From a virus (taxonomy: Duplodnaviria; Heunggongvirae; Uroviricota; Caudoviricetes): a DNA stretch of 45,442 nucleotides. A model generated the notes under the pieces. That model did not search any database and had not been told where the DNA came from. It was given only the letters and a program-made list of their open reading frames with translations. The DNA lies in the IMG/VR virus record IMGVR_UViG_2534681703_000014, positions 1 through 45,442 of that record. One strand, 5' to 3'. Of the stretch, positions 1-45,442 are shown piece after piece. The position numbers were made by a program, and so were the translations under genes. How positions within the stretch are numbered: position 1 is the stretch's first letter; each line of letters begins with the position of its first letter.

Positions 1-123
1 CTTTCTCCAAAACCAGAACGGAATTGATTGATTTTGATAGGATCTATAACGCCGTTACATTAAACGGCAAAACCACTCAAAAACAAACTTAATGCATTGA
101 ATATAAAGGATTAATCATCTAAT
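1..123. repeat. Left copy of perfect 123-bp direct repeat (att-containing; may extend beyond window edge)
   Basis: Bases 1-123 are identical to 45320-45442 by direct comparison; lies immediately outside the integrase gene. Confidence 0.85.
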
Positions 124-184
124 TCGCTCACCTTCTTATTCATAAGGCGGGACACTTTCAGGATTTTGAATTTATTCAATTTTT

Positions 185-222
185 CCTTTCTCCAAAATCT
201 CTCCAAAACGTTTCCCCAAAAC
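185..222. repeat. Reiterated TCTCCAAAA(C/T) motifs next to int; candidate integrase arm-type binding sites
   Basis: Motif TCTCCAAAAC occurs at 4-13 (inside the repeat), 188-197, 199-208 and as TCCCCAAAAC at 213-222; arm-site role is inference. Confidence 0.35.
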
Positions 223-285
223 TAGGCCACGCATTTTACAACACTTTTTTCCTGAGATGGTGACGGATATTCCATATGGTGTTTG

Positions 286-1404
286 TCAAATAACCAACTT
301 AACCCATTCCTGACCTCGAGTATCGTTATAGCGATCGGTGGTTGCCTGGACTTTATGCCCTAGTAATGTTTTTGTATCGATACCCTGTGCACGGTACAGC
401 CGTTCTGATAGAGAGCGTTGTTCATGAAATGTTGGCGGAGTTTTTCCTGCTGGTGGAATTATCCCAGCCAGATCCCGTGCTTTGGCAAAGTAGTCGCTCA
501 GGTTGTCTTTACTCATCGGCTTCGGTTGTTTCTGGTGCCGACTATGGATTAGATATGGACTTAATATTCTGTCTCGGCACCCATCAATAACTTCTTTTAA
601 CGTTATCCCAATGGCATCACAGCGTAGTGTAAGCGGTAACGCCAGACGCATTCCGGTTTTTCCCTGGGTGATATGCAAGTGTTCGTTCCACACATCTGAA
701 AAACGCATGTGGCAAATGTCATCACGGCGCTGACCAGTAACAATCGCAAGAAGCATTGCGTTACGGATAAAGTGTTTTTCAGGCGTTGCATTGTAAATTT
801 TTTGCCAGTCTTCCATGGTGAGCCTGGCTCTGGTTACTTTAGGGATCGGTTTACGGGTAGCCTCCGGAGGATTCCATCCAGGAGGAACTTCCCCTGCATG
901 CTGTGCTTCTTTATAAATATCAACCCATAATCCACGATTTACTCTCGCTGTGCTGACCATGTCTTTATCCAGCCACTCATCCAGTATTAATGCAAAGTCT
1001 CTTACTTCCAGTTCTTTCAATGGGTGGTTTCCCAGACGGGAAACCAGGTATGCAGCCATTCGAGTTTTTTCTTTGTGAGTTGTAGCTGCAATATCTCCAT
1101 TTTTCAGTCGCGCGTCCTGTATTTTCAGATATCGATCAACCCATGCCTTTAATCTGATGCCCCGACGTTTTGTTGCTGACGGACTTTCATCAATTTTGCG
1201 CATGAAATATTCAGCTTCTGCTGCAGCTATTCGCTGATTGGCTGTGGAAGCGATTTTTTCTGCTTTGCCTTTGTCTGTTCCGAGACCGTGAAATTTTCCA
1301 GTCACAGGGTTTTTATACTGGTAGTAAACCCTGCCAGTTCTGCGATCAAACTTTTCGTAAAGACCGGTTACGTCAGTGCTGTTTTTTCGTGGCCTCGGTG
1401 ACAT
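286..1404 (-). CDS. int: Tyrosine-type site-specific integrase (lambda Int family)
   Basis: 372-aa ORF at prophage end, beside the repeat; C-terminal region with R...HxxR...Y-type catalytic layout typical of phage integrases; AAGGAG SD 10 nt upstream of ATG. Confidence 0.9.
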   Translation of the reverse strand: MSPRPRKNSTDVTGLYEKFDRRTGRVYYQYKNPVTGKFHGLGTDKGKAEKIASTANQRIAAAEAEYFMRKIDESPSATKRRGIRLKAWVDRYLKIQDARLKNGDIAATTHKEKTRMAAYLVSRLGNHPLKELEVRDFALILDEWLDKDMVSTARVNRGLWVDIYKEAQHAGEVPPGWNPPEATRKPIPKVTRARLTMEDWQKIYNATPEKHFIRNAMLLAIVTGQRRDDICHMRFSDVWNEHLHITQGKTGMRLALPLTLRCDAIGITLKEVIDGCRDRILSPYLIHSRHQKQPKPMSKDNLSDYFAKARDLAGIIPPAGKTPPTFHEQRSLSERLYRAQGIDTKTLLGHKVQATTDRYNDTRGQEWVKLVI

Positions 1405-1642
1405 GAGTTAAAATCTCCTTCAGTGCATCATCATCGCCAGTATGAATTTCCGGCGCAATTCCCGTTTCACCAGGTCCAACAAATACTGCCCGGCGATCTA
1501 TCAGCCAACGCCCACGAATTTTTTGTGGTCTTGGAACGATGTATCCTAGTTTTCCGTATTTCACCAGGGTAGTGTTTGTTATTGGGAGACTGAACCGTTT
1601 TGGTTTCCACTCGTCGAGCGTTATCAGGTACTGTTCGCTCAT
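1373..1642 (-). CDS. xis: Excisionase (Xis-like)
   Basis: 89-aa ORF immediately upstream of and overlapping int; N-terminus YLITLDEW resembles lambda Xis YLTLQEW; GGAG SD before ATG at 1642. Confidence 0.7.
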   Translation of the reverse strand: MSEQYLITLDEWKPKRFSLPITNTTLVKYGKLGYIVPRPQKIRGRWLIDRRAVFVGPGETGIAPEIHTGDDDALKEILTHVTEATKKQH

Positions 1643-1703
1643 GGCTATCACTCCGGAACGCGCCAGTTGCAGAATACCAACGACAACTGGCGACGGTTGA
1701 ACA

Positions 1704-4175
1704 TTAAAAATCAGCCTGACTCGGGATCAGTTTTTGCCAGATAGCTGAAACGTATTTTGCCTGGTAACGAGCGTCATCAAGTGCATTATGGCGCTCACCT
1801 TCGAATGGGATAGCAGTTCTGGCATCGAAGTCTATGGCTTTCCCCAGCTCAACGATTGTGCGTACATCGCGATCGTTGTAGTAACGCCACGGGCAGGGGA
1901 TCCCCTGCCGCTCGTATGAACGGCGCAAAATAGTGTTGTCGAAGTTGGCTCCATTTCCCCAGACCTGAACAAAAAATTCACCGGAGTTTTCGTCGATAAA
2001 TTCCCGCAATTGTAACAGTGCATCATCTAACGGGATTTCATCGGTCATAATGGCAGATTGCGCTTCGCGTGATTGTTTAAGCCACCATTTAATGGTGTCC
2101 CGATCAATGACTCCGCCAGCAGTTTCCAGATCGATAGTCTTACTAAATTCCGGTCCCATATCTCCGGTTTGCGGATCGAAAAATATTGCACCTATTGAGA
2201 TAATCGGGGCATCGGGATTTTTTCCCATGGTTTCAAGGTCGATCATCAGATGAATCCCCGCTCTGCTGGTGGATGTGAGATTATGATGACCGTTCGCCTT
2301 AATTAAGGGATCTGACGCCTCGCCAGTTTCACTATCGCTGGCATGATGCTGATTGCCGCCAGTGTTCTCCTTGTGCTGATGCGCAGTGCCTTCCATTTCC
2401 TCCGGATCATTTTCCTGAACTTCAGGCTGATTCTCTCCATCGAATATTTCCTGGTATGTTGCGTCACCCATCACCGCACCACAATCAGGGCAGTTGCCGC
2501 CACCGCTCTGACCGCAGGCGGTGCAGATCTTTTCCGGTTCCTGTTGCACTACTGGTTCAGGTTGTTTCGTTTCTGGCTCGTTTTGTTGCGTATTTTGGCT
2601 GTTTTGTTCCGCTTTCTGGTCGTTCTGTTCCGTTTCTTGCTGGTTCTGGTTCGCAGAATCGCGGGTCTGGATCCCCTTAACCCATTTCGGATCATTCGGG
2701 TCGCTAATCCCTTCAACAAATTCACCACGTGATACTGCAAGCAGTTCATCGGCGTCAGGCTGGCTGATATTGGCTGCCTGCATAATTTTGTTTACTTCGT
2801 CAGCGGTAACTTTTACCGGTTCTGGCTGTGCGGTCGTGTCAGATGCACCAGTATTTTGTTGTGAACCTGAGTATGTACCGTTTTTGCGGGCGAAATATTC
2901 TTCTTTCGTGATTTCAGTAGCCCCTGCAGCCAGTGCCTTATCCAGACCAGAAAGTTTGTTTGCGCGACCGTATTTTTCGCCATCCTTGTCGGTGAAGAGG
3001 AAGTAGAACGGCCCCTCACGCTCTACAGATGGTTCGACTTCCACTTTGCATTCGGTTTTTTCGTTGTCCGGAATTGCCGTTTCCACTGCATCAGTTTCTG
3101 GTACTGGCGACGAGAGAGTATCAGTTGCGCTCTGATTTGTTCCTTCATCTTCAAACACGCCCTTTGTAGTCAGGTATTCAGTAATGTATTTGTTCAGTGC
3201 CACAGGATCTTTGTGAATGTCGATCGGACGTCCACGGACAAGGCCAAAAATAGTCTGGCGGTCGTAGCGAAGGGCATCAGGCTGTTTGCGCATCGATGCC
3301 GAGATACGCTTCCAGTCTTCGCGGTCGTTGTCGATAACTTCATTTTTTGCCCAGCGATGGATGCTGCCGTCAATGTTTCCGGCATCCACATCACCAGGCC
3401 AGAGAGCGTAGGCCAGTTCGTCATCCAGTGTTTTCCATGTCTGCTTGTATTCGCGATGAATGACTGCAGTGACAGGGGAGATATTTTCTGCTGAGTTTTC
3501 AGTGTGCTGTCGGTTGACTCTGGCGCGGGCGAGATCAACAGCAGACGTGTATTTTCCGGTTTCCTTGCGTTCACCTTCGCGACGTTTTTTCCAGATGCGC
3601 ATCTCTGCCTGAATTTCGGGCCATTTAGCTCCAGGCTTACATTTATGCTTAACCCACCCGATGGCATGCAACTTAAGTTCTGGATACATGGCGTTAACTT
3701 CTGGCATTTTCATCAACGCTTCAACGATATGTCCGTCGAATGTTGCCATGTCTTCCTGCAACAATTCCTGCGCGCTAATCACCATATCAACGGTGATGTT
3801 TTCACATGTGTCGAACTTAACCATGACAGCGTTCTGTACTTCAGGGGCCAGCTTGTCAAAAGTGACGTTCATCGGATCTGATTCAGTCTCAACCGGGACA
3901 AAGGAAGCAGACTCCTCATCCCAGCGGTTTTCCTGCATATATTCAGCATCCCAGGAATCGAGGGCAGGGCGGGGTATACCGGGTTTATCCTCGCAAACAA
4001 GAAATTTATAAGCGCAGTCCTGAGCAGCCGGATATTGCTCCAGGAATTGCCAGGTAAATTTGGCACGGGCGCGGCGTTCGTCACCGGCTTCAATGGCAGT
4101 GGCTACAGCAACTGCACCTTCTTCCTTTATTGCCTGTTCGTCCGGAATGGCAGCGCAAATAAAGACTTTACTCAT
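1704..4175 (-). CDS. Prophage exonuclease, 823 aa, with C-terminal DnaQ-like (DEDDh) 3'-5' exonuclease domain
   Basis: C-terminal motifs MIDLETMG ... HNALDDA fit the DnaQ/RNase T fold; central Q/N/E-rich low-complexity linker; position matches the exo slot of lambdoid early-left operons. Confidence 0.8.
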   Translation of the reverse strand: MSKVFICAAIPDEQAIKEEGAVAVATAIEAGDERRARAKFTWQFLEQYPAAQDCAYKFLVCEDKPGIPRPALDSWDAEYMQENRWDEESASFVPVETESDPMNVTFDKLAPEVQNAVMVKFDTCENITVDMVISAQELLQEDMATFDGHIVEALMKMPEVNAMYPELKLHAIGWVKHKCKPGAKWPEIQAEMRIWKKRREGERKETGKYTSAVDLARARVNRQHTENSAENISPVTAVIHREYKQTWKTLDDELAYALWPGDVDAGNIDGSIHRWAKNEVIDNDREDWKRISASMRKQPDALRYDRQTIFGLVRGRPIDIHKDPVALNKYITEYLTTKGVFEDEGTNQSATDTLSSPVPETDAVETAIPDNEKTECKVEVEPSVEREGPFYFLFTDKDGEKYGRANKLSGLDKALAAGATEITKEEYFARKNGTYSGSQQNTGASDTTAQPEPVKVTADEVNKIMQAANISQPDADELLAVSRGEFVEGISDPNDPKWVKGIQTRDSANQNQQETEQNDQKAEQNSQNTQQNEPETKQPEPVVQQEPEKICTACGQSGGGNCPDCGAVMGDATYQEIFDGENQPEVQENDPEEMEGTAHQHKENTGGNQHHASDSETGEASDPLIKANGHHNLTSTSRAGIHLMIDLETMGKNPDAPIISIGAIFFDPQTGDMGPEFSKTIDLETAGGVIDRDTIKWWLKQSREAQSAIMTDEIPLDDALLQLREFIDENSGEFFVQVWGNGANFDNTILRRSYERQGIPCPWRYYNDRDVRTIVELGKAIDFDARTAIPFEGERHNALDDARYQAKYVSAIWQKLIPSQADF

Positions 4176-4254
4176 TTTGTTTTACCTCATTACAGATTTA
4201 AGGGTGAACAAATCCCTGCCATTGCTGGCATATAAAAATGAAACTGGATATTAA

Positions 4255-4458
4255 TTACGGCGCTGTTTTTAATCCTGCCGGGATTTCGTTATTATCCATG
4301 CGAATAACTTTCTCGACCAGATAACAGTTACCAGGAATTTTCTGTTCTGCTGCGGCAGCCATACATTCTTTCATTGAACCATATATACCAGTAACCACAT
4401 CAACAGGTTCGCCAGTATTAAGAAAAACAGTCAGAGTGAGGGCAACAGCAGTCTTCAT
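4255..4458 (-). CDS. Hypothetical small early protein (67 aa)
   Basis: ORF in the early-left operon; ATGA start/stop overlap with upstream ORF suggests translational coupling; no recognised domain. Confidence 0.4.
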   Translation of the reverse strand: MKTAVALTLTVFLNTGEPVDVVTGIYGSMKECMAAAAEQKIPGNCYLVEKVIRMDNNEIPAGLKTAP

Positions 4459-4748
4459 TGCCAGCGTCCTTTTTGCATCAGGCGTAAACGGGCCAGCATT
4501 GAAACAATGCATATTTTATTTAATAACTCCCGTTCGTGTTTTCTCTTGTTAATGGCATCTTCAGTAAATACAGGGTTACTGATAGTGACACCAATTTCAA
4601 AACAACCTTCAGACGTATTAACGTTTGGTAATAACGTTTCCATTATCGCGTCCTCAACAATGAATTTTGTGATGCGGTGCCTGGTGCCTCCAGGTGACGT
4701 TAACCAGTTAACAATTAACGCCGGATACAGAGAATCCACCCATAACAC
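4455..4748 (-). CDS. Hypothetical early protein
   Basis: ORF co-oriented with the early-left operon; start codon uncertain. Confidence 0.4.
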   Translation of the reverse strand: MLWVDSLYPALIVNWLTSPGGTRHRITKFIVEDAIMETLLPNVNTSEGCFEIGVTISNPVFTEDAINKRKHERELLNKICIVSMLARLRLMQKGRWQ

Positions 4749-5204
4749 TGTTTTTGGTTTTAACTGTTCCGCGTGCGCTTAGCCGCATTCACCGCATCAC
4801 AAAATTCACTTTAAAAAGGGCGGCAGAGCAGTCACGGAGTAAAACTGATACCGCTAAACGCCACCAGAAAATTGATAACAGAGGGCGTTGCAGCGGGGTT
4901 GTCACTTAAGCGTATGGTCAACCTGACAACCCGGTGTCCTCAACGGGGAAGGAATAACCCCGCCATACTTACCGCCGCGCCATTTCGCGGATTGCCACAA
5001 CCGGAAGCGCACGGTCGACGAAAATTTAACGACAGGCTATCTATGAACCAGCAACCTCGCCGTGCGCTTTCGCGTTATGCTCTGACTTTTCAGAGAAATA
5101 TCCTTTCAGTAAACTGTCAGTACCGGATGCTCACCCGTGTCCGGCGCACGCACTCCACCTCACCCGTGGAGAACTCCTTAAGTACCAACCCTCAGGATGG
5201 TGAA

Positions 5205-5426
5205 ATGACTAGTAAAAATGTAAATATCCAGTTTAACCACGATGTTTCTCCTGCCGGACTTGCGGATGAACTCACTGCTATAAAAACAGCAATTATGCTA
5301 CTTGTTGCTAAGTTGCCAGCAGCATCACAACCATCAGATATTTGTGACTCATTACGTAAGATGAATTCAACAAAATGCAACGAGATGGCATCACTTATTG
5401 AAATAGCTATTGATTTTAATGATTAA
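5205..5426 (+). CDS. Hypothetical small protein (73 aa) encoded opposite to the early-left operon
   Basis: ATG at 5205 with upstream GGATGGTGA; 3' end overlaps by 11 nt the convergent minus-strand gene; the upstream part of the listed 184-aa ORF looks non-coding. Confidence 0.3.
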   Translation: MTSKNVNIQFNHDVSPAGLADELTAIKTAIMLLVAKLPAASQPSDICDSLRKMNSTKCNEMASLIEIAIDFND

Positions 5427-5790
5427 TCGAAATCTCATGGCTAACTGTAACACTCCCGTCTGTGGCGGGATGCTTTAAATCACAGGAGTTAACGCTTTTT
5501 GTTGCAAAGTAATTTTCAAGGGGGTCTATTCGAATCCCTTTCTTTTTCATTAACAAGCCAAACCCCTTATCAATGATGTCCATTAGATCCAGGAAGTATT
5601 TTTTATGTAAATCCTGGTTATCAGAGAGCTGCTTCTCTTCGTACAGACCGATAAAGGCACGACGCACGTTACCGGATATAGTATAGATGGTTTCTTTTTC
5701 TACGGTACTCAGGTCAAGAGTCGCCAGTTGGGAACGAACTATATTCGCTGCCATTTCCTGGAATTGCATTGGTAAATCTTTAAATTCCAT
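5416..5790 (-). CDS. Hypothetical early protein (124 aa)
   Basis: ORF in the early-left operon; no recognised motif. Confidence 0.5.
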   Translation of the reverse strand: MEFKDLPMQFQEMAANIVRSQLATLDLSTVEKETIYTISGNVRRAFIGLYEEKQLSDNQDLHKKYFLDLMDIIDKGFGLLMKKKGIRIDPLENYFATKSVNSCDLKHPATDGSVTVSHEISINH

Positions 5791-5812
5791 TATTAGCCTC
5801 GTTGGTTAGCTA

Positions 5813-6031
5813 TTAACGTGGGTATGTAATCATTCTGGCAATGCTTAATGCCGCTGCTTTTTCCAGCCTGGTGATATCCTGCTCCAGAGCGGACAGATTT
5901 TCAGCCTGCTTAGCCCTGGCTTCATTGGCCCATTTCAGATCCTGCGCTGCATTAATTTTCTGGCGCATCCACTCATAAAGTTCATCATCGGTATAGTCTT
6001 GTGCGATGATGACGGGTTCTCGTTTCTGCAT
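5813..6031 (-). CDS. Hypothetical early protein (72 aa), coiled-coil-like
   Basis: ORF in the early-left operon. Confidence 0.45.
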   Translation of the reverse strand: MQKREPVIIAQDYTDDELYEWMRQKINAAQDLKWANEARAKQAENLSALEQDITRLEKAAALSIARMITYPR

Positions 6032-6060
6032 ACTGATTCCTCGCGGTGCTGTTTCGCTTA

Positions 6061-6189
6061 TCAGCCGTTAGATTTTGCGGAACTGGAAAGCGCCTGTTTA
6101 AATTCGTTGAAGCTGAGAGCTTCTTCGCCTTCGGCAAGACCTTCGAAGTATTCTTCGTAAGCCTTTTCCATGATTGTGTCGAAATCCAT
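6061..6189 (-). CDS. Hypothetical small acidic protein (42 aa)
   Basis: Not in the ORF track (under 60 aa); ATG at 6189 lies 1 nt from the stop of the upstream gene (TGAGTGATATGG), suggesting coupling; translation MDFDTIMEKAYEEYFEGLAEGEEALSFNEFKQALSSSAKSNG. Confidence 0.3.
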   Translation of the reverse strand: MDFDTIMEKAYEEYFEGLAEGEEALSFNEFKQALSSSAKSNG

Positions 6190-6190
6190 A

Positions 6191-6427
6191 TCACTCACCT
6201 GAGTTTCTTTCCAGCCAGCGACGGGCACCATTTTCGGTTTTAAACGTTTTGCTTTTGGTATACGTCATCGCGGTGAACGTACCGTCCTGGTTGGGGAACA
6301 CGCCACATACCAGAGATTCGCTGTTGCCAAGATCGATAGTATCCATGCTGACCTCATTTCCCCTTAACGCCGGGGTAGCGGAACAAAAACCTGCTGCATA
6401 GTTATTAAAGTTGAACCCTGCCGTCAT
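6191..6427 (-). CDS. Hypothetical early protein (78 aa)
   Basis: First ORF downstream of the putative pL region at 6428-6637. Confidence 0.45.
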   Translation of the reverse strand: MTAGFNFNNYAAGFCSATPALRGNEVSMDTIDLGNSESLVCGVFPNQDGTFTAMTYTKSKTFKTENGARRWLERNSGE

Positions 6428-6637
6428 GTTCTTACGCCTCGGGCTGGCTACTTAACCCCTGACCACTGCCTGGTAACTCGAAGTATTGCCCTGCATTATG
6501 TGGGGCGGGGTGGGTTGATATTTTTAGTTTAATAAACATTAAACTTAAGTCAAGTAAAAACTAAACCGCAGGGCGTAACAAACACAACGCTTTTGATAAA
6601 GTCGTTGCGGTTGTTATGTTTCTATTGGTAGTGAAAG

Positions 6638-6916
6638 TTAGGGAAACTGGCGTCTTGCGTGGATCACGTTTACTACTTCAACGCTTGATGTTGTTACGCG
6701 GTATAGAATTATATAGTTAGGGTGGGCTACAATCTCACGCAAGCCAGGTACTCTGTCGCTTGGTGGGTATAAATACGGATGTTCGGATAACGGCAGCACA
6801 CAACCCCTTAATCGCTGCCATAAGCGTTCAGCCGCATCTATGTCGAAACGAGCAATATAACTAGTTATATCATCTAGGTCGGTATCTGCGCTTTCAAGCC
6901 ATAACACGGGTAACAT
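6638..6916 (-). CDS. Type II toxin, RelE/ParE superfamily (92 aa from internal ATG)
   Basis: Size, basic C-terminus (...NVIHARRQFP) and pairing with an upstream small RHH-like antitoxin ORF whose stop is 1 nt from this start; family call from remembered ParE-like sequences. Confidence 0.65.
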   Translation of the reverse strand: MLPVLWLESADTDLDDITSYIARFDIDAAERLWQRLRGCVLPLSEHPYLYPPSDRVPGLREIVAHPNYIILYRVTTSSVEVVNVIHARRQFP

Positions 6917-6917
6917 T

Positions 6918-7109
6918 TTACTGCTTGCTCCGTTCCTTGCGCATTTTAGCAAAGCGTTCTGCCATTCTGCGCTCAACTTCGTCATGGGGAATTGCTGGGC
7001 GTGGATCTGCAAGGCTCGTTGCTACTTTTGCACGCAGCCATTCGTTGTAACTGTTTTCTTGTTCAATGGTTTCAAATTCAGAAACCATTGGTGAAAGGGC
7101 TCTATTCAT
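6918..7109 (-). CDS. Type II antitoxin, ParD-like (63 aa)
   Basis: Small ORF MNRALSPMVSEFETIEQENSYNEWLRAKVATSLADPRPAIPHDEVERRMAERFAKMRKERSKQ with strong GGAGG SD; immediately precedes the ParE-like ORF. Confidence 0.6.
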   Translation of the reverse strand: MNRALSPMVSEFETIEQENSYNEWLRAKVATSLADPRPAIPHDEVERRMAERFAKMRKERSKQ

Positions 7110-7129
7110 GTTTCCTCCGGTTTTATAAC

Positions 7130-7501
7130 TCAGGCGCGGCGGCATTTTTGCGCCGCAATCCATCTCGCTATGAGATCTTCCATTGATTCTTTTTTCTGCT
7201 TTAACTCGCTGATTATCTGGCGTTGCTCATCCTCAGGGAAGGCTGAAAAAATCTGCAATAATTCCAGTTGATTAGACGTTAACCCTGCATGTGGTGGAGA
7301 AACCTCCGGTTGTTCTGCGTATTCCGCATCCAGATACCCTTCCGGCATCCCGTATGTTTGCTCTATTCTTCTGGCAGCCTTTTCTCCAAACGAGGCTCTC
7401 CCACTCATTAGTTGAGATAGGTAGCTCTTCTCTTTGGGTGGCAGAGTTTTATCTTTAAACCACTCCTTGAGACGTAAACGGCGAATTTCTTTTTTTTGCA
7501 T
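7130..7501 (-). CDS. Prophage repressor, short HTH (XRE-like) protein without a peptidase domain (123 aa)
   Basis: HTH-like segment SYLSQLMSGRASFGEKAARRIEQTYG; divergent from a Cro-like gene across a 98-bp operator region. Confidence 0.65.
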   Translation of the reverse strand: MQKKEIRRLRLKEWFKDKTLPPKEKSYLSQLMSGRASFGEKAARRIEQTYGMPEGYLDAEYAEQPEVSPPHAGLTSNQLELLQIFSAFPEDEQRQIISELKQKKESMEDLIARWIAAQKCRRA

Positions 7502-7599
7502 GTGGTAATTATCTTTAGTAATCACTAAACAAGCAAATACTTGACTTAATGGTTTATTAAACACTAAACTCTCAAAAAAAACACTAAACCGAGGAAGGT
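7502..7599. promoter_or_regulatory. Divergent promoter/operator region (OR-like) with three CACTAAAC repeats and a TTGACT -35-like hexamer
   Basis: CACTAAAC at 7523-7530, 7562-7569 and 7582-7589; TTGACT followed about 18 nt later by TAAACT upstream of the cro-like start. Confidence 0.55.
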
Positions 7600-7902
7600 A
7601 TGACATTAAAAGAGTTTATTAAATCATTGAGGGTTGGTGATGCTAAGAAATTCGCAGCCAGACTTGGTGTATCGCCATCTTACTTATCGCAAATGGCGTC
7701 TGGACGAGCAGCTATATCTCCAACACGCGCCCTTATGATCGAATCTGCGACGGAAGGCCAAGTAAGTAGGGCGGAGCTACGACCCCATGATTGGGAGCTT
7801 ATTTGGCCTGAGTATGCGAGCGGCATTCGTTTGGGGCAAACACATGTAGTTCATGCTGAAGGTGATTGTAGTGCATGCTTATCTGATGGAGTTGATTCAT
7901 GA
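7600..7902 (+). CDS. Cro/YdaS-like HTH regulator (100 aa)
   Basis: HTH-like segment KKFAARLGVSPSYLSQMASGRAAISP; first rightward gene after the operator, as in Rac-type immunity regions. Confidence 0.7.
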   Translation: MTLKEFIKSLRVGDAKKFAARLGVSPSYLSQMASGRAAISPTRALMIESATEGQVSRAELRPHDWELIWPEYASGIRLGQTHVVHAEGDCSACLSDGVDS

Positions 7903-8324
7903 AAATCAAGCATGAACACATCCGCATGGCGATGAATGCCTGGGCGCATCCGGACGGTGAAAAAGTTCCGGCTGCGAAAATTACCAAAGCGTATTTCGAG
8001 CTGGGAATGACGTTCCCGGAACTGTATAACGACAGCCATCCGGAAGCCCTGGCTCGCAATACTCAGAAAATTTTCCGCTGGGTAGAGAAAGACACCCCTG
8101 ATGCGGTTAAAAAAATTCAGGCGTTGTTACCAGCTATCGAAAAAGCAATGCCACCTCTGCTGGTGGCCCGAATGCGCAGCCACAGTTCAGCCTGGTTTCG
8201 GGAGCTGGTGGAGACGCGGGAACGGCTGGTGAGAGACGCTGATGATTTTGTCGCAGTGGCGATCGCTGGTTTCAACCAGATGAATCGTGGTGGCCCTGCG
8301 GGAAATATTGTGGCTGTGCATTGA
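7899..8324 (+). CDS. YdaT-like protein (CII-position gene of Rac-type immunity regions)
   Basis: N-terminus MKIKHEHI matches my recollection of Rac YdaT; follows the YdaS-like gene with a 4-nt overlap. Confidence 0.55.
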   Translation: MKIKHEHIRMAMNAWAHPDGEKVPAAKITKAYFELGMTFPELYNDSHPEALARNTQKIFRWVEKDTPDAVKKIQALLPAIEKAMPPLLVARMRSHSSAWFRELVETRERLVRDADDFVAVAIAGFNQMNRGGPAGNIVAVH

Positions 8325-8395
8325 CTCGCAATATTCATACCGGATCACTTCCGGCAATTTGTGAGTAAAAAGATTCGGTATCAAAAGAGGTGAGT

Positions 8396-9436
8396 ATGGC
8401 TAACGCCTGGCTCAGATTATGGCATGACATGCCAAACGATCCTAAGTGGCGAACAATTTCCAGGTTGTCAGGACAGCCAATCGCAACAGTGATGGCTGTG
8501 TATATCCACCTTCTGGTGAGTGCGTCACGAAATGTCACGACATGTCACGGTGTGTCACTACGTGGTCACATTGATGTCACGGCGGAAGATTTAGCAAGTG
8601 CGCTTGATGTGACGGAAGAAGTAATTGATTCAATTTTACAGGCAATGCAGGGACGGGTACTTGATGGAGATTTGATCAGTGGATGGGAAAAACGCCAGGT
8701 ACTGAAAGAGGACAATGGCAACGTTTCACAAACCGCGAAATCCCCGGCAGAGCGCAAGAGAGCGCAGCGCGAGAGGGAAAAATTACGAAAACAGAATGAG
8801 GGGGCGCGCGACGAGTCACGCATCTGTCACGACATGTCACGACGAGTCACGACAGATAAAGATACAGATAAAGAATTAAACCCCACACATAACGCGCGCG
8901 TGCGAGAGAGTGCTCCTGCCAGTGAGGCAAATGGCGTGCCGTTGCAAACAGCGGAACCTGATTACCTGGAAGGCCTGAGCGAACCCATCGGGAAATTTCC
9001 GATGACCGATGGCTGGCATCCGTCGCCGGATTTTCGACGACGGGCTGCGCTGTGGGGCGTGGCTCTTCCTGAGCCGGAATTTACACCAGCTGAACTTTCC
9101 GCCTTCCGGGACTACTGGGCAGCGGAGGGCAAAGTGTTCACGCAGGTTCAGTGGGAGCAGAAATTCGCCCGTCACGTAAATCACGTCAGGGCGCAGGCTA
9201 AACCAGTCAGCAAGGGGGTAAACCATGCAGCAGCACCAGGTGGCACCGCATCACGGGCAGTTCAGGAAATTCGGGCAGCACGTGAGCAGTGGGAACGTGA
9301 AAACGGATTTATCAGCGACGGAAACGGCCTGGAAGCTGTGGGAACTCATGGGGGAGGTTTATTCGAACCGCTGGACCCAGAAGAACGGGGCCGCACCTTC
9401 GAAGCTCTGGATTGCACAGATTGGCGCGATGACTGA
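8396..9436 (+). CDS. Replication initiation protein (YdaU/DUF1376-like N-terminus, DnaT-like C-terminal region); O analogue
   Basis: N-terminus MANAWLRLWHDMPNDPKWRTI; AGAGGTGA SD; internal iteron clusters as in lambda O/ori. Confidence 0.65.
   Translation: MANAWLRLWHDMPNDPKWRTISRLSGQPIATVMAVYIHLLVSASRNVTTCHGVSLRGHIDVTAEDLASALDVTEEVIDSILQAMQGRVLDGDLISGWEKRQVLKEDNGNVSQTAKSPAERKRAQREREKLRKQNEGARDESRICHDMSRRVTTDKDTDKELNPTHNARVRESAPASEANGVPLQTAEPDYLEGLSEPIGKFPMTDGWHPSPDFRRRAALWGVALPEPEFTPAELSAFRDYWAAEGKVFTQVQWEQKFARHVNHVRAQAKPVSKGVNHAAAPGGTASRAVQEIRAAREQWERENGFISDGNGLEAVGTHGGGLFEPLDPEERGRTFEALDCTDWRDD
8522..8853. repeat. Two clusters of (T)GTCACG iterons inside the O-like gene; candidate replication origin
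   Basis: GTCACG at 8524, 8535, 8544 and 8576 with GTCAC variants at 8554 and 8565; second cluster at 8815, 8826, 8836 and 8847; followed by an A/T-rich AGATAAAG-repeat stretch at 8852-8880. Confidence 0.55.
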
Positions 9437-9890
9437 GCAGCAAATCCGACAGGTCTGCCGCCAGTGCATGGACCGCTGCCGGGCGGGTGAAACATGGCCT
9501 CCGGACCTGGCTGAGTTTGTGGCACTGATTTCGGAGAGTGGGGCAAATCCATTTGGTCTGACGGTGGATGCTGTGATGGAGGAGTACCGTCGCTGGCGCA
9601 ATGAGTCCTGGCGATACGACGGAAGCGATAAATACCCATGGACTCAGCCTGTGCTGTATCACATTTGCCTCGAGATGCGTTCAAAGGGGATTGAGCGCCA
9701 GATGACCGAAGGGGAATTAAAACGGCTTGCAGAACGGCAGCTGACGAAATGGGCAAAGCATGTTAGTAACGGCCTGAGCGTTCCGCCAGTCCGGCGACAA
9801 CTGGCGGCACCCAAACGCCCGTCGGGACCAACGCCAATTGAGTTACTGAAACAGGAATATGAACGCCGGAAAGCGGCTGGGTTTGTTTGA
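9225..9890 (+). CDS. Replication protein P-like (helicase loader analogue)
   Basis: C-terminal half has lambda P-like pattern (...YPW...[10 protein letters not shown]...); GGGGG SD before ATG 9225; alternative ATG at 9429 overlaps the O stop. Confidence 0.55.
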
Positions 9891-9924
9891 GTTGAGAAGT
9901 AATTTTTACCGGGAGGAAATTTTA

Positions 9925-10686
9925 ATGGAGACCGTTTTTGACGCACTGAAAGCGATGGGAAAAGCTACGTCGGTAGAACTGGCTGAGCGACTTGATATCA
10001 GTCGTGAAGAAGTGCTGAACGAACTATGGGAACTGAAAAAGGCTGGTTTCGTTGATAAAAGCGCGTACACCTGGCGTGTGGCTGATAACAACGTTCAGCA
10101 GGAACAGCCAGCGCCAGAAGAACAGCCGGAAGAAACCTCCACGGCGACAGTAGCGAAAATCTCAGAGTGCGATTTAACCGCGACGATTGAACAACGCGGA
10201 CCACAAACGGCTGATGAGCTGGCTACATTGTTTGGTACCACATCACGCAAAGTGGCTTCAACGCTGGCAATGGCAATCAGCAAAGGCCGTCTGATTCGTG
10301 CTAATCAGGACGGTAAATTTCGTTACTGTATGCCGGGCGATAATTTACCAGCAGAGCCGAAAGCAGCATCGGTAGCGGAAACTGATGGTAAAGCCTTTCC
10401 TCAGCCTGCATGCGTTGCGTTACCAGTACAGGAAGCTGCAACACAGGAAGATATTAAAACAGAGACTGTGGCGGACATTGTGCAGTCGCTGCCATCGTTT
10501 ACTGAAACGCGAGCGGATGACCTGGTTTTACCATCGCTGCATATGGCAAACCGCGAACTGCGTCGGGCGAAAAATCATGTCCAGAAGTGGGAGCGAGTCT
10601 GCGCCGCGCTGCGGGAGCTGAACAAGCACCGGGATATTGTACGACAGATTACTGATTCTTCCCGCCATGTTGCATCGGAAAAGTGA
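9925..10686 (+). CDS. Hypothetical protein with winged-helix-like N-terminus (253 aa)
   Basis: ATG 9925 with GGGAGG SD; N-terminus [29 protein letters not shown] resembles a DNA-binding wHTH. Confidence 0.5.
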
Positions 10687-16766: not shown

Positions 16767-16842
16767 GGCCCTTTAGCTCAGTGGTGAGAGCGAGCGACTC
16801 ATAATCGCCAGGTCGCTGGTTCAAATCCAGCAAGGGCCACCA
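16767..16842 (+). tRNA. tRNA with CAU anticodon, resembling E. coli tRNA-Ile2 (ileX-like); Met cannot be excluded
   Basis: Manual cloverleaf: acceptor GGCCCTT/AAGGGCC, D-arm GCTC..GAGC, anticodon loop CTCATAA, T-arm GCTGG-TTCAAAT-CCAGC, 3' ACCA. Confidence 0.85.
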
Positions 16843-16843
16843 A

Positions 16844-16920
16844 CCGCCACTAGCTCATCAGGAAAGAGCGTCAACCCTTTAAGTTGAGTGTGCGAGGTTC
16901 GAGTCCCCGGTGGCGGTCCA
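16844..16920 (+). tRNA. Atypical tRNA-like gene, apparent anticodon UUU (Lys) with C33 and U73
   Basis: Acceptor CCGCCAC/GTGGCGG, D-arm GCTC..GAGC, anticodon stem TCAAC/GTTGA with loop CCTTTAA, T-loop TTCGAGT with one stem mismatch, 3' TCCA. Confidence 0.5.
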
Positions 16921-16922
16921 GT

Positions 16923-16998
<76 letters not shown>

Positions 16999-17001
16999 TA
17001 T

Positions 17002-17076
<75 letters not shown>

Positions 17077-30107: not shown

Positions 30108-30430
30108 CGCAGGAAATGCAGTTTGTCATGCGGCTGGCCCGGGAGTTCCGGCGGGGCGACTGGCGGCGAATGCTGTCAGAAATGTCAGCCACAGAACTGG
30201 GAGAGTGGGGGGATTATTTCCGGCGGCAGAGTTTCAGTGATGTGTGGCTGGATGCGCAATTTGCCACACTGAAAACGCTGATTGTGCAGATGGTTTCCGG
30301 AAAAACCGTGGCGGCGGATATGTTCAGCCTGTTGCCTTCAGAGACAGAAGCGCCCGTCCGGACAGATGAAGAGCTGATGTTTCTGGGGGAAGGTATCGCG
30401 GGAGGAATAAGAATTGAGCCAGATAGCTGA
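30074..30430 (+). CDS. T portion of tail assembly chaperone GT, expressed by programmed -1 frameshift from G
   Basis: ORF in the -1 frame relative to G, open from 30074; conserved G/GT architecture of lambda-like tails; slip site not canonical. Confidence 0.6.
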   Translation, partial: REGGADAGKVLTQEMQFVMRLAREFRRGDWRRMLSEMSATELGEWGDYFRRQSFSDVWLDAQFATLKTLIVQMVSGKTVAADMFSLLPSETEAPVRTDEELMFLGEGIAGGIRIEPDS

Positions 30431-33400
30431 CCTTGTTATTGATTTAAGTGTTGATACGGCTGATTTTAAGGAACAGCTTCCGCGTATTAAAGCGCAACTC
30501 AATGGTACCGCCAGCGAAGCGGCGCGCGCAGAAGCGCGGGTCAGACAGTTTGAAGCGAGTCAGAAGCAGGCGGCGACTACCGCGGTGAAACAGACTCAGG
30601 CACTGGCGGGGAATGCGCAGGCGCATGTTTCGTTGTCAGAGGATGTGGAACAGACCCGTCAGCGACTTGATGCCCTGAACCGGAAAATGCGTGAGGAGCA
30701 GGCGCAGGCGGCGGCACTGGCTGCTGCTCAGGATAAAGCCGCTGCTGCATTTTATCGTCAGATTGACAGTGTGAAACAGGCGGGGGCCGGACTGCAGGAG
30801 CTGCAGCGTATTCAGCAGCAGGTCCGTCAGGCCAGAAACAATGGTGGCATCGCGCAGCAGGATTATCTGGCGTTAATCTCCGAAGTGACGGCAAAAACCC
30901 GCGTGCTGGCTCAGGCTGAAGAATCCGCCACCCGCCAGAAGACGGCCTTTATCCGGCGGCTGAAGGAGCAGGTATCCGCTCAGAATCTTTCATCCACGGA
31001 GCTGCTCAGGGCAAAAGCCGCGCAGCTGGGTGTCAGTAGTGCGGCTGAGGTGTATATCAGCAAAATGGAAAAAGCCGGGAAGGTCACGCATTCGCTGGGG
31101 CTGAAAAGTGCGGCGGCCCGCCAGGAGATAGGTGTTCTGATAGGTGAAATTGCCCGGGGTAATTTCGGTGCGCTTCGTGGCTCCGGGATCACCCTGGCTA
31201 ACCGTGCCGGATGGATTGACGCGCTGATGTCCCCGAAAGGCATGGCTGTCGGCGGGGTTATCGGTGGACTCACTGCTGCTGTTGTCGGGCTGGGAAAGGC
31301 CTGGTATGACGGTCAGAAGGAGGGGGAGGTGTTTAATCGTCAGCTGGCGTTGACAGGGCATTATGCGGGCATCACTACCGGACAGCTGTGGACTCTCAGT
31401 CGCGCCATTTCCGGGAATGGTATCACGCAACATGCTGCAGCCAGTGCGCTGGCTCAGGCGGTTGGCAGCGGTGCATTTCGTGGAGGTGATATCGCCATGG
31501 TGGCGAAAGCTGCCGCGCAAATGGAAAGTTCAGTGGGGCAGTCTGTCAGCGACACCATCAGTCAGTTTAAGCGACTGAAGGATGACCCGGTAAATGCAGC
31601 CAGGACGCTGGATAATGAACTGCATTTCCTGACTGCCACCCAGCTTGAACAAATCCGTGTTCTCGGGGAACAGGGGCGTGCCAGTGATGCTGCCCGGATC
31701 GCCATGTCAGCGCTGGCAGAGGAAACCGGTAAACGCACATCTGATATTGATAATAATCTCAATGCGCTGGGCAGTACGCTGCAAACCTTATCTGACTGGT
31801 GGAAGCAGTTCTGGGATGCCGCCATGAATATCGGGCGTAATGATTCCCTTGATGCGCAGATTGCGGCGCTGCAGGAAAAAATTCAGCGTGCGAAAAAATC
31901 GCCCTGGACAAATGCATCCACCACAGTGGAATACGACCAGCAGCGCCTTGATGAACTTCAGGAGAAAAAGCGCCAGAAAGATTTACAGGATGCAAAAGAG
32001 CAGGCAGAGCGGAATTATCAGGAGCAACAGAAACGCCGGAATGCTGAAAATGCCGCGCTGAACCGGATGAACGAAACGGAAGCGGCACGACATCAGCGTG
32101 AAATTGCGCGTATTAATGCCATGCAGTACGCAGATCAGTCGGTCAGGGACGCAGCGATACAGCGTGAAAATAAACGTCACAAAAAAGCCATTAAGAAAGA
32201 AACGCCTGCCACCCGTAATGATGAGGCCACCCGGTTATTACTGCAGTACAGCCAGCAACAGGCGCAGGTGGAGGGGCAGATCGCCGCCGCCAGACAGTCC
32301 GCGGGACTGACCACGAAAAAAATGACGGAAGCGCATAAGCAGCTTCTGGCCCTGCAGCAGCGTATCAGTGATTTAGCCGGTAAAAAGCTGACGGCAGATG
32401 AAAAAAGCGTGCTGGCGCATAAGGATGAACTGATTCAGGCGCTGACGCTGCTGGATGCAAAACAGCAGGAGCTGCAGAAGCAGACGGCGCTGAATGACCT
32501 TAAGAAAAAATCCATTCAGCTTGCCAGCCAGCTGGCGGAAGAGGAGCGGGTTCTGCGTCAGCAACATGACCTGGATATCGCCACGACAGGGATGGGGGAT
32601 AAACAGCGTCAGCGATACCAGGCACAGTTCAGTCTGCAACAAAAATATCAGCAGCAGCGGGAACAGTTGGAGCGTGACAGTAAGCGGAAAGGAACATATG
32701 GCACAGATGAATACCGGAATGCTGAGCAGACGCTGACAGACAGTCTTAACCGGCAACTGAACGAAAACAGACGCTACTGGCAGGAGCAGGAACTGATGCA
32801 GGCAGACTGGAAAAACGGTGCCATGCGGGCGTTTCAGAATTTTACGGCAGATGCGGATAATGCGGCAGGAACTGCTGAGCAGATGTTTACAGCGGCATTT
32901 AACAGTGCAGGTAATGCACTGGCGACGTTCTGCACGACAGGTAAACTGAATTTCAAATCCTTTACCGCCTCGCTTCTTTCCGACCTGGCAAAAATCATGG
33001 CGCAGATGGCCATTATGCAGGCGGTGAAGGGGATTGGTTCGGCGTTTGGCTGGGGGAGCGCATCCGCTGCCAGTGTGACGCCCAATGCGGATGGCGGTGT
33101 TTATCAGTCTGCGGATTTGAGCCGTTACAGTGGCTCAGTGGTTAACCGCCCGACGTTTTTTGCCTTTGCAAAAGGCGCGGGGGTGATGGGAGAAGCGGGG
33201 CCTGAAGCCATTCTGCCACTGCGTCGTGGTGCCGACGGTAAGCTGGGTGTTGTGGCGGATATTGGTGGTTCAGGCATGGTGATGTTTGCCCCGCAGTACA
33301 ACATCGCGATCAATAACGACGGTACGAACGGGCAGATAGGTCCGGCTGCCCTGAAGGTGGTTTATGACCTCGGGAAAAAAGCTGCAGCGGACTTTATGCA

Positions 33401-33446
33401 ACAGCAGTCCCGTGATGGCGGTCAGTTAAGCGGAGTGTATCGGTAA
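30414..33446 (+). CDS. Tail tape measure protein (gpH-like, 1010 aa)
   Basis: Very long, Ala/Gln-rich coiled-coil-like protein after G/GT; apparent TTG start preceded by GGGAGG. Confidence 0.85.
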   Translation: MSQIADLVIDLSVDTADFKEQLPRIKAQLNGTASEAARAEARVRQFEASQKQAATTAVKQTQALAGNAQAHVSLSEDVEQTRQRLDALNRKMREEQAQAAALAAAQDKAAAAFYRQIDSVKQAGAGLQELQRIQQQVRQARNNGGIAQQDYLALISEVTAKTRVLAQAEESATRQKTAFIRRLKEQVSAQNLSSTELLRAKAAQLGVSSAAEVYISKMEKAGKVTHSLGLKSAAARQEIGVLIGEIARGNFGALRGSGITLANRAGWIDALMSPKGMAVGGVIGGLTAAVVGLGKAWYDGQKEGEVFNRQLALTGHYAGITTGQLWTLSRAISGNGITQHAAASALAQAVGSGAFRGGDIAMVAKAAAQMESSVGQSVSDTISQFKRLKDDPVNAARTLDNELHFLTATQLEQIRVLGEQGRASDAARIAMSALAEETGKRTSDIDNNLNALGSTLQTLSDWWKQFWDAAMNIGRNDSLDAQIAALQEKIQRAKKSPWTNASTTVEYDQQRLDELQEKKRQKDLQDAKEQAERNYQEQQKRRNAENAALNRMNETEAARHQREIARINAMQYADQSVRDAAIQRENKRHKKAIKKETPATRNDEATRLLLQYSQQQAQVEGQIAAARQSAGLTTKKMTEAHKQLLALQQRISDLAGKKLTADEKSVLAHKDELIQALTLLDAKQQELQKQTALNDLKKKSIQLASQLAEEERVLRQQHDLDIATTGMGDKQRQRYQAQFSLQQKYQQQREQLERDSKRKGTYGTDEYRNAEQTLTDSLNRQLNENRRYWQEQELMQADWKNGAMRAFQNFTADADNAAGTAEQMFTAAFNSAGNALATFCTTGKLNFKSFTASLLSDLAKIMAQMAIMQAVKGIGSAFGWGSASAASVTPNADGGVYQSADLSRYSGSVVNRPTFFAFAKGAGVMGEAGPEAILPLRRGADGKLGVVADIGGSGMVMFAPQYNIAINNDGTNGQIGPAALKVVYDLGKKAAADFMQQQSRDGGQLSGVYR

Positions 33447-33775
33447 TGGAGACGTTTCACTGGAAAATTCGTCCTGATATGACAGTGGCATCGGAACCGA
33501 AGGTGTTGACGGTAAAGCTGGGGGATGGCTATGAACAGCGGCGACCGGCAGGACTGAATAATTTATTGTCTGTTTACAGTGTGACTATCCGGATACGTAA
33601 AGGAGAACATCAGTCACTGGAGGATTTTCTGGCGCGGCATGGCGGTGTCAGGGCGTTTCAGTGGGTGCCGCCTTATGGCTGGAAACCAGTCATGGTGGTT
33701 TGTCGTAAATGGTCGACACGCGTTGGGGCGTTATGGGTGACTGTAACGGCAGATTTTGAGCAGGTGGTGAACTGA
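33446..33775 (+). CDS. Minor tail protein M
   Basis: 109 aa; TAATG overlap with H; canonical position. Confidence 0.75.
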   Translation: METFHWKIRPDMTVASEPKVLTVKLGDGYEQRRPAGLNNLLSVYSVTIRIRKGEHQSLEDFLARHGGVRAFQWVPPYGWKPVMVVCRKWSTRVGALWVTVTADFEQVVN

Positions 33776-34473
33776 TGCAGGATATACAGCAGGAAACACT
33801 GAATGAATGCACCCGTGCGGAGCAGTCGGCCAGCGTGGTGCTCTGGGAAATCGATCTGACAGAGGTCGGTGGAGAACGTTATTTTTTCTGTAATGAGCAG
33901 AACGAAAAAGGTGAGCCGGTCACCTGGCAGGGGCGACAGTATCAGGCGTATCCCATTCAGGGGAGTGGTTTTGAACTGAATGGCAAGGGCAGTGCTGCCC
34001 GTCCGACACTGACGGTTTCTAACCTGCACGGCATGGTCACCGGGATGGCGGAAGACCTGCAGAGTCTGGTCGGCGGAACGGTGGTCAGGCGTAAGGTTTA
34101 CGCCCGTTTTCTGGATGCGGTGAACTTCGTCAACGGAAACAGTGACGCCGATCCGGAGCAGGAGGTGATCAGCCGCTGGCGCATTGAGCAGTGCAGCGAA
34201 CTGAGCGCGGTGAGTGCCTCTTTTGTACTGTCCACGCCGACGGAAACGGACGGCGCTGTTTTTCCGGGACGTATCATGCTGGCCAACACCTGCACCTGGA
34301 CCTATCGCGGTGATGAGTGCGGTTATCACGGTCCGGCTGTCGCGGATGAATATGACCAGCCGACGTCCGATATCACGAAGGATAAATGCAGCAAATGCCT
34401 GAGTGGCTGTAAGTTTCGCAATAACGTCTGCAACTTTGGCGGCTTCCTTTCCATTAACAAACTTTCGCAGTAA
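33775..34473 (+). CDS. Minor tail protein L
   Basis: 232 aa with Cys-rich C-terminus; canonical position. Confidence 0.75.
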   Translation: MQDIQQETLNECTRAEQSASVVLWEIDLTEVGGERYFFCNEQNEKGEPVTWQGRQYQAYPIQGSGFELNGKGSAARPTLTVSNLHGMVTGMAEDLQSLVGGTVVRRKVYARFLDAVNFVNGNSDADPEQEVISRWRIEQCSELSAVSASFVLSTPTETDGAVFPGRIMLANTCTWTYRGDECGYHGPAVADEYDQPTSDITKDKCSKCLSGCKFRNNVCNFGGFLSINKLSQ

Positions 34474-34477
34474 TCCC

Positions 34478-35221
34478 ATGACAGAGACAGAATCAGCGAT
34501 TCTGGCGCACGCCCGGCGATGTGCGCCAGCGGAGTCGTGCGGCTTCGTGGTGAGAACGCCGGAGGGGGAAAGATATTTTCCCTGCGTGAATATCTCCGGT
34601 GAGCCGGAGGATTATTTCCGGATGGCTCCGGAGGACTGGCTGCAGGCAGAAATGCAGGGTGAGATTGTGGCGCTGGTCCACAGTCATCCCGGTGGTCTGC
34701 CCTGGCTGAGTGATGCTGACCGGCGGCTGCAGGTGCAGAGTGATTCGCCGTGGTGGCTGGTCTGCCGGGGGGCGATTCATAAGTTCCGCTGTGTGCCGCA
34801 TCTCACCGGGCGGCGCTTTGAGCACGGGTCGACGGACTGTTACACGCTGTTCCGGGATGCTTATCATCTGGCGGGGATTGAGATGCCGGATTTTCATCGC
34901 GGGTATGACTGGTGGCGTAACGGTCAGAATCTCTATCTTGACAATATGGAGGCAACGGGTTTTTACCGTGTCGCACTGACAGAGGCGCAGCCGGGCGATG
35001 TGCTGCTGTGCTGTTTTGGTTCATCGGTGCCGAATCATGCCGCCATTTACTGTGGTGATGGCGAGCTGCTGCACCATATTCCTGAACAACTGAGCAAACG
35101 AGAGAGGTATACCGACAAATGGCAGCGACGCACACACTCCCTCTGGCGTCACCGGGCATGGCGCGCATCTGCCTTTACGGGGATTTGCAACGATTTGGCC
35201 GCCGCATCGACCTTCGTGTGA
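34478..35221 (+). CDS. Tail assembly protein K (JAB/MPN plus NlpC/P60-like)
   Basis: ATG 34478; motifs HSHPGG and NlpC-like Cys region; canonical position. Confidence 0.7.
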   Translation: MTETESAILAHARRCAPAESCGFVVRTPEGERYFPCVNISGEPEDYFRMAPEDWLQAEMQGEIVALVHSHPGGLPWLSDADRRLQVQSDSPWWLVCRGAIHKFRCVPHLTGRRFEHGSTDCYTLFRDAYHLAGIEMPDFHRGYDWWRNGQNLYLDNMEATGFYRVALTEAQPGDVLLCCFGSSVPNHAAIYCGDGELLHHIPEQLSKRERYTDKWQRRTHSLWRHRAWRASAFTGICNDLAAASTFV

Positions 35222-35790: not shown

Positions 35791-35850
35791 TGCAAAATGT
35801 TTTATGTGAAACCGCCTCCGGGCGGTTTTGTCGTTTATGGAGCGTGAGGA

Positions 35851-39552: not shown

Positions 39553-39571
39553 CGATTTATTAACCCGGAGG

Positions 39572-39595
39572 GGCACCCGAAGCGGTGCCTTTTTT
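39572..39595 (+). terminator. Rho-independent terminator after J
   Basis: Hairpin GGCACC-CGAAGC-GGTGCC followed by TTTTTT. Confidence 0.6.
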
Positions 39596-39619
39596 ATTGA
39601 CTGAAAACGAGAGGTAATC

Positions 39620-40231: not shown

Positions 40232-40258
40232 TTAGCCAGGTAACACAGTGTTATGACA

Positions 40259-40284
40259 GCCCGCCGGTTCAGGCGGGCTTTTTT
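40259..40284 (+). terminator. Rho-independent terminator after lom
   Basis: Hairpin GCCCGCC-GGTTCA-GGCGGGC followed by TTTTTT. Confidence 0.6.
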
Positions 40285-40295
40285 GTGGGGTGAAT

Positions 40296-42419: not shown

Positions 42420-42432
42420 CGGGGAATAAAAC

Positions 42433-43008: not shown

Positions 43009-43228
43009 AAAAACATTGATATGCCAGCCCCTTGTAAAAATATTGAACATGGACGCTTTGAGTTGAATTGGATTTACATGGGGCACCTTGGGGCATATAT
43101 GGGACATAAAAAGGCCTCAGACAAACAGCAAAATCGAGTTCAGGAGTTTTTAGAAAAAATACAACCATCTTAAAAAAACTTAGAAAACGCCCAGAAATCC
43201 ACAGGATGGTAAAAAATATCTATGAATC

Positions 43229-45319: not shown

Positions 45320-45442
45320 CTTTCTCCAAAACCAGAACGGAATTGATTGATTTTGATAGGATCTATAACGCCGTTACATTAAACGGCAAAACCACTCAAA
45401 AACAAACTTAATGCATTGAATATAAAGGATTAATCATCTAAT
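45320..45442. repeat. Right copy of perfect 123-bp direct repeat (att-containing)
   Basis: Identical to 1-123. Confidence 0.85.

Follow-up and report, generated by a model that had tools for sequence, protein, structure and literature searches.

The 45,442-nucleotide stretch of DNA analyzed here (the window) begins and ends with the same 123 bp, and an integrase gene lies beside the first copy. Identical ends next to int could be the duplicated attachment site of an integrated prophage, the terminal repeat of packaged DNA, or a product of the way in which the record was put together, and the question raised by this locus is which of these readings applies. A first-pass annotation had chosen the attachment site: the repeat, clipped by the window edges and perhaps longer, was read as a long att duplication of the kind that arises when a phage carries the 3' end of its target locus. 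The underlying observation was reproduced exactly, in that positions 1–123 equal 45320–45442, 123 bp is the longest terminal overlap, and the repeat is AT-rich (GC 0.32 versus 0.51 for the whole window).

Table 1. Features of the attachment region and of the neighboring recombination genes (window coordinates; distances of arm-type sites are from the overlap centre)
Feature	Position	Strand	Remarks
Left copy of the contig-end overlap	1..123	+	Most of the attP P arm; phage DNA
Candidate P-arm arm-type Int site, TCTCCAAAA (extended, TTCTCCAAAA)	4..12 (= 45323-45331)	+	-135 to -127
IHF-consensus-like site, AATCAATCAATTC	21..33	-	One mismatch to WATCAANNNNTTR
P-arm hairpin/palindrome, GCCGTT-N6-AACGGC	51..68	+	-8.8 kcal/mol as RNA, local z-score -3.2
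IHF-consensus-like site, ATTCAATGCATTA	90..102	-	One mismatch; within conserved block TTGAATAT
Surrogate potB 3' end supplied by the phage	111..142	-	...LNKKVSELDD* replaces native ...LNKKVELE*
Common core, CACCTTCTTATTCA	129..142	+	Sole attP/attB identity in the four-way alignment of attP, attL, attR and attB
Candidate core-type Int site, CACCTT	129-134		Inverted partner of AAGGCG
Inferred overlap (strand-exchange) region, TTATTCA, 7 bp	136..142	+	Polymorphism at 135 and difference at 143
Conserved P' arm module	143..249	+	Kept in divergent lysogens to 248/249, then divergence or inserted genes
Candidate core-type Int site, AAGGCG	144..149	+	5/6 complementary to CACCTT, 9 bp apart
Candidate P'1-P'3 in tandem, TCTCCAAAA, TCTCCAAAA and TCCCCAAAA	189-197, 200-208, 213-221	+	+50 to +82
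Integrase, lambda Int family, with N-terminal arm-binding domain	286..1404	-	PF09003 4e-21, PF00589 1.6e-18
Excisionase	1373..1651	-	PF07825 23 bits, equal to the cut-off; RefSeq names the identical neighbor excisionase
Weak candidate second P-arm site, TCTCGAAAA	45309..45317	+	One mismatch; -149 to -141
Right copy of the contig-end overlap	45320..45442	+	Other end of AQEY01000011.1

Identical ends of a complete draft contig

The window was found to be the whole of NCBI draft contig AQEY01000011.1 (45,442 bp; assembly GCA_000355295.1). The contig was reached by an exact-protein match of the tail-fibre gene, which has the same coordinate there as in the window, and the two pieces compared, window 30296–45442 and 1–10175, were both identical. 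The repeat therefore lies at the ends of a complete contig, and the window edges, being the ends of a public record, have not clipped it. As in a contig that overlaps itself, both ends of the whole record agree over exactly 123 bp.

When the 123-mer was compared with 5,426 complete E. coli genomes, 940 of them were matched, at a median of one place per genome, and among the matches listed this place was the 3' end of potB. In the lysogens Z0117EC0005 and 700481, the 123-mer has the phage tail-fibre/methyltransferase end on one side and potB on the other. Lysogens almost always carry one copy, on the potB side only, and a repeat on both prophage flanks, as the attL/attR reading required, was not found. 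Integrated siblings run from the right copy into tcgct-CACCTTCTTATTCA-potB: in two sibling assemblies, the last 5,147 bp are identical to the right end of the window and contain one 123-mer each, beyond which tcgct-CACCTTCTTATTCA-gca(g/a)acg leads into potB. When positions 124–1500, on the int side, were used as the query, 1,635 of the 5,426 genomes were matched; in 1,623 genomes, one place covered at least 80% of the query, and every alignment among the matches listed began at position 129, attL being potC sequence up to position 128. The uninterrupted site, present in 3,749 of the 5,426 genomes, shares with the phage only the 14-bp core (in K-12, CACCTTCTTATTCA alone), and no homologue of the repeat was found at the uninterrupted host locus. 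Searching host genomes with the repeat, as had been proposed at first pass, did identify the target locus, potB/potC, but the repeat itself was missing from attB.

In a four-way alignment, the left end of the window reads P-O-P', attL of 700481 reads potC-O-P', attR of 700481 reads P-O-potB, and attB of K-12 reads potC-O-potB, where O is CACCTTCTTATTCA. Taken with this alignment, the lack of the 123 bp at empty sites and their single occurrence in lysogens identify them as phage P-arm DNA, to which the host contributes nothing. Window 1–285 is an intact attP, composed of P arm, core, and P' arm. A true att duplication of at least 123 bp round a single prophage, made through a long phage-borne copy of the target 3' end, would explain why both ends are exactly identical and why Int adjoins one of them, and phages with a copy of the 3' end of their target gene do exist (phage 21 and e14 in icd). 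Against it stand the empty sites and the single copies just described, the potC sequence that attL holds up to position 128, and the status of the window as a stand-alone contig, which together make such a duplication very improbable.

The identical 123-bp ends are instead, with high probability, the self-overlap of a draft contig that gives a lambda-like E. coli phage in its attP form; contrary to the first-pass view, they do stem from record construction. Reads spanning the junction of P arm, core, and P' arm would have led the assembler on until it halted 123 bp into its own start, and both "direct repeats" would be one stretch of the phage P arm written twice. The idea that 123 is an assembler k-mer size was considered and dropped. 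Identical contig ends are also the usual signature of a direct terminal repeat of packaged virion DNA. The phage is, however, a cos-type lambdoid E. coli phage, with a large terminase of the lambda gpA family (which cuts at cos) and a lambda-family portal, and the records of mEp460 and Ayreon open at about window position 20,850, beside the terminase genes. The terminase family and the opening point of these relatives argue that the repeat is not a packaging terminal repeat, and the repeat moreover coincides with attP, so a physical repeat on the virion DNA is scarcely credible. An N15- or P1-like plasmid prophage was ruled out by the presence of int, xis, and attP and by the integrated siblings.

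Since window 1–285 is an intact attP, the template could have been a circle excised in the sequenced culture or an array of tandem prophages. The identity of the contig, the relations among attP, attL, attR, and attB, the length of the core, and the arm with which position 135 travels were seen directly, whereas circle or tandem, binding of Int to the motifs, and use of IHF are matters of inference. The intact P-O-P' junction occurs in 11 E. coli chromosomes, of which the two examined (O26 97-3250 and UTME-9) have it between tandem prophages, and tandem or inserted prophages at potB have been published (PMC9997748). Both observations are consistent with two tandem prophages at potB in the source chromosome that were collapsed by the assembler. 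Spontaneously excised circles are likewise common in lysogen cultures, however, and the window alone gives no distinction between the two, and we regard a collapsed tandem as unlikely, if by no means far-fetched. It would in any case leave the 123 bp as P arm and the core at 14 bp. The contig starts about 130 bp or less from the att core. Had the circle been opened at an arbitrary point, this would be something of a coincidence, and it hints at an influence of assembly-graph branching at att on where the contig was broken.

The junction made by closing the contig ends exists elsewhere in single copy, both at the tandem junctions in E. coli and in a human gut metagenome contig, where P-O-P' with one 123-bp copy is found in the order tail fibre-tfa-attP-int-xis. 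No exact match to P-O-P' was found in IMG/VR or in GTDB representative genomes, and the GenBank phage set and PLSDB gave integrated-type ends only, with no intact attP of this kind. The "plasmid" matches look like parts of chromosomes, since they either include potB or come from very long records. Among the phage records found, only the prophage-derived vB_EcoS-640R1 and vB_EcoS-813R8 share int, and an IMG/VR search by Int returned 80 loci at 99–100% identity, most of which end right at the int stop codon, with no distant relative for comparison. A general caution follows for draft phage-like sequences: identical ends can be assembler overlap on a circular or tandem template, and if such overlap is mistaken for attL and attR, the size of the att core is greatly overstated.

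Several other features of the phage were recorded. Four tRNA genes were identified in a row by ARAGORN at 16767–17076 (Met-CAT, Lys-TTT, Thr-TGT, and Gly-TCC). Units of 10 bp of the TGTCACGAC type, which are likely origin iterons, are reiterated at 8523–8561 and 8825–8853, overlapping the 5' part of the 8390–9436 ORF, which is PF17948 DnaT on the source contig. The early region holds a PaaA2-ParE toxin-antitoxin pair (6638–7109, minus strand; Pfam, source contig). Beside attP lies a decayed tail-fibre switching region (43800–45200) with the remnant of a serine invertase/resolvase (a 40-aa N-terminal part, 43808–43930), two 79-nt copies of a tail-fibre-assembly gene end that are 90% identical (44055–44133 and 45104–45182), and a complete class I SAM methyltransferase gene on the opposite strand (44207–44875).

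The att core and its place at the end of potB

The true attachment core is 14 bp and lies within the last codons of potB. The long core proposed at first pass was therefore a considerable overestimate, the empty site in related genomes giving the far shorter value, whereas the suggestion that the target is not a tRNA gene proved right.

Natural variation narrows the crossover further. In a spread sample of 42 uninterrupted sites, the host attB position equivalent to 135 was T instead of C in 15, a synonymous AAG/AAA change in potB. T135 was seen in attL of 700481, OkiPb01697, and 2013C-3264, and attL matches from two other O157:H7 genomes were identical to the T-allele query; C135 was seen in all attP-type sequences and in all seven attR sequences read. 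For T135 in attR, a 110-nt query gave no perfect match among about 960 full-length matches, the best of which differed only by C135. Position 143 differs between attP and attB, and in T135 hosts the identity between the two is down to 7 bp, TTATTCA. Since position 135 travels with the left arm, be it potC or P, and the identity ends before 143, strand exchange is placed within 136–142, and we infer TTATTCA to be the strand-exchange region. The sites thereby show the short attP/attB identity with a 6–8 bp overlap that characterizes lambda-type systems, and 7 bp is the expected length for this recombinase family. The candidate core-type sites CACCTT and AAGGCG are set apart by a 9-bp gap, which is presumably the spacing of the lambda core-type sites; in attB, the right half-site of the core is poor.

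The integration site is the end of potB, at the potB/potC junction, an ordinary and known lambdoid arrangement. potB/potC is an established lambdoid prophage locus (PMC8190617, PMC9997748, PMC7067040, PMC8065619, and PMC3486847); its occupants include Sakai Sp6, "PP_potB" of O157 clade 8 and O145:H28, prophage J of an O104:H4 isolate, and Stx phages of LEE-negative STEC. No paper giving the core or arm sequences was found among the open papers searched. This int is present in 1,635 of the 5,426 complete E. coli genomes, an occupancy of about 30%, and the site is empty in 3,749. The E. coli equivalent of window 129–142 lies at 2630–2643 of the retrieved attB locus (L002).

A lambda-family tyrosine integrase would recombine attP with attB at the potB/potC junction, and in lysogens integration has swapped the last potB codons for the phage tail VSELDD* and parted potAB from potCD. 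The phage-supplied potB end comprises about seven codons that are not identical to those of the host. Of the proposed phage copy of the target 3' end, it is this short surrogate that stands, and not a 123-bp copy. Roughly 30% of the complete E. coli genomes thus have a rewritten PotB C terminus and a potAB that is no longer coupled to potCD. Three further observations concern the host genes. The att core and the Shine-Dalgarno region of potC overlap, AAGGTG being the reverse complement of CACCTT; in lysogens, potCD is left behind a 45-kb prophage; and no consensus promoter was found in the P' arm.

The same int and P' arm also occur joined to a P arm of a second, strongly diverged class (O157:H7 and attR of OkiPb01697). 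About 646 genomes fall into the corresponding 80–90% identity band of the 110-nt attR query. The class includes O157, in which PotB ends in ...LNKKATEIDN*, and the Stx2a-converting prophage at potB/potC of strain OkiPb01697. In some lysogens, extra genes are present between the end of the P' arm (about window 249) and int, as a DUF2335 pair in some strains and as an AAA ATPase gene with a hypothetical gene in another (lysogen loci L006 6429–7077, L089 2787–3435, and L088 2840–4575). These extra genes near window 249 mark a cargo insertion hotspot just beyond the functional attP.

Candidate binding sites and hairpins in the arms

The integrase combines an arm-binding with a catalytic domain, as in lambda-type systems, and the excisionase gene is next to int. 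Comparison of Int with lambda Int structures gave E 4e-54 over residues 26–371.

The motif TCTCCAAAA was matched exactly four times in the window, versus 0.48 expected, and 0 of 100 shuffles reached four. Two of these matches are the same duplicated copy, and the number of unique sites is therefore three; no shuffle gave more than two. The reiterated motif next to int had been reported at first pass, and the copies at 189–221 hold; an exact copy at 4–12, in the P arm, had been overlooked. Within the window, exact copies are found in attP only, all on the same strand. The three P' copies were invariant in seven diverged attP/attL sequences in which the flanks varied, and in a 50-kb relative the motif was found at attL only. 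When the P arms of O157 and of the Stx2a phage were compared with that of the window, TTCTCCAAAA was the longest invariant block between the strongly diverged classes, and it lies at the same distance from the core; TCTCGAAAA at 45309–45317 is not kept as such in the second class.

By comparison of these sequences, the TTCTCCAAAA-type repeats are most likely arm-type sites for the N-terminal domain of Int, in support of the earlier suggestion. Repeated putative arm-type sites, distinct from the core, are then present on both arms. The same repeats might serve another factor (Xis, Fis, or a host regulator), have a part in transcription or in signalling by RNA, or be low-complexity sequence without function; all copies do lie in an AT-rich region, and one-mismatch copies over the whole window are at chance level (16 versus 12.3 expected). 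Such readings are rather improbable given that exact copies are confined to attP, where they occupy both arms at lambda-like distances from the core, that they are invariant amid diverging flanks and missing from the rest of the 50-kb relative, and that Int has an arm-binding domain. As arm-type sites, one or two in the P arm (about -149 and -135) and three in the P' arm (+50 to +82) would be bound by the Int N-domain in the intasome.

Of IHF-like sites, two were found in the 450 bp scanned, versus 0.31 expected, both with one mismatch and both in conserved blocks of the P arm. The O157-class sequence aligned to 21–33, AATCAAACAGTTG, is an exact match to the consensus. No IHF site was found in the P' arm, nor a clear H'-type site between the core and P'1. 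Located between arm and core, the IHF-like sites would help intasome folding, as in lambda. Altogether, the comparative evidence provides good support for a predicted lambda-like intasome.

The hairpin GCCGTT-ACATTA-AACGGC noted at first pass was recovered at 51–68. No terminator-like match was obtained on either strand, and an intrinsic terminator was rejected for this element. In the alignment, its place is taken in the second P-arm class by an inverted repeat of unrelated sequence, GGCATGCT...AGCATGCC, and a structural role for the P-arm hairpin is therefore possible. A second, GC-rich hairpin, CCTCCCCGAC-N10-GTCGGGGAGG, was observed at 45231–45260 (-24.2 kcal/mol on the minus strand, z -4.9), in the interval that separates attP from the last tail-fibre-assembly remnant. 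In the circular form, it would follow int on the same strand, about 340–370 nt downstream, and it is parted from int by integration; a sib/tI-like position for it is a matter of speculation.

A joint reading of these elements can be offered tentatively, as possible rather than probable: that the potB Int family uses an undescribed arm motif, TTCTCCAAAA, together with the 7-bp overlap TTATTCA, that the P-arm hairpin is a functional RNA element, and that the contig arose by spontaneous excision. If this were true, the hairpin might be where the truncated potAB transcript stops in lysogens, or it could regulate int in a sib-like way on the excised circle, and the contig would directly document spontaneous excision in the culture that was sequenced.

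Comparison with known systems

The closest comparison is with lambda itself. Int is a full-length homologue, including the arm-binding domain, and xis is upstream of int; attP lies just beyond the int 3' end and has a short core, with candidate, imperfectly inverted CAnCTT-like hexamers 9 bp apart; and repeated arm motifs occur on either side of the core, P' having a tandem set of three, over about -149 to +82. The likeness of attP is to the extent and site order of the lambda attP. The systems differ in the core sequence and in the arm motif, the lambda arm-type consensus being approximately C/AAGTCACTAT and the motif of this phage TTCTCCAAAA. In addition, attB of this phage is in a gene end (potB/potC), whereas that of lambda is between gal and bio, and the two candidate P-arm sites here are adjacent, without an IHF site between them.

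Phage 21 and e14 rebuild the 3' end of icd, and the present phage resembles them in inserting within the end of a protein gene and supplying replacement codons and a stop. Here, however, about seven codons are replaced, which are not a host copy, and the identity with the host is 14 bp and not at least 100 bp. Over the structural half of the genome, the phage is related to mEp460, Ayreon, phi458, and cdtI, with about 86–87% nucleotide identity over about 62–68% of it; unlike for this contig, no phage record with this attP intact was found.

Other potB/potC prophages share the locus, and 1,635 of the 5,426 complete E. coli genomes have this int together with its P' arm. The O157 and Stx2a examples differ in their diverged P arm and the PotB tail ATEIDN*, and there are further differences in cargo and structural modules and in form, this record being the excised attP form and not an integrated one. 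The gain is modest: attP and attB are described base by base for a potB/potC lambdoid integrase that is very common in E. coli, and the attP/Int/Xis module is an ordinary one of the lambda type, at a site already known.
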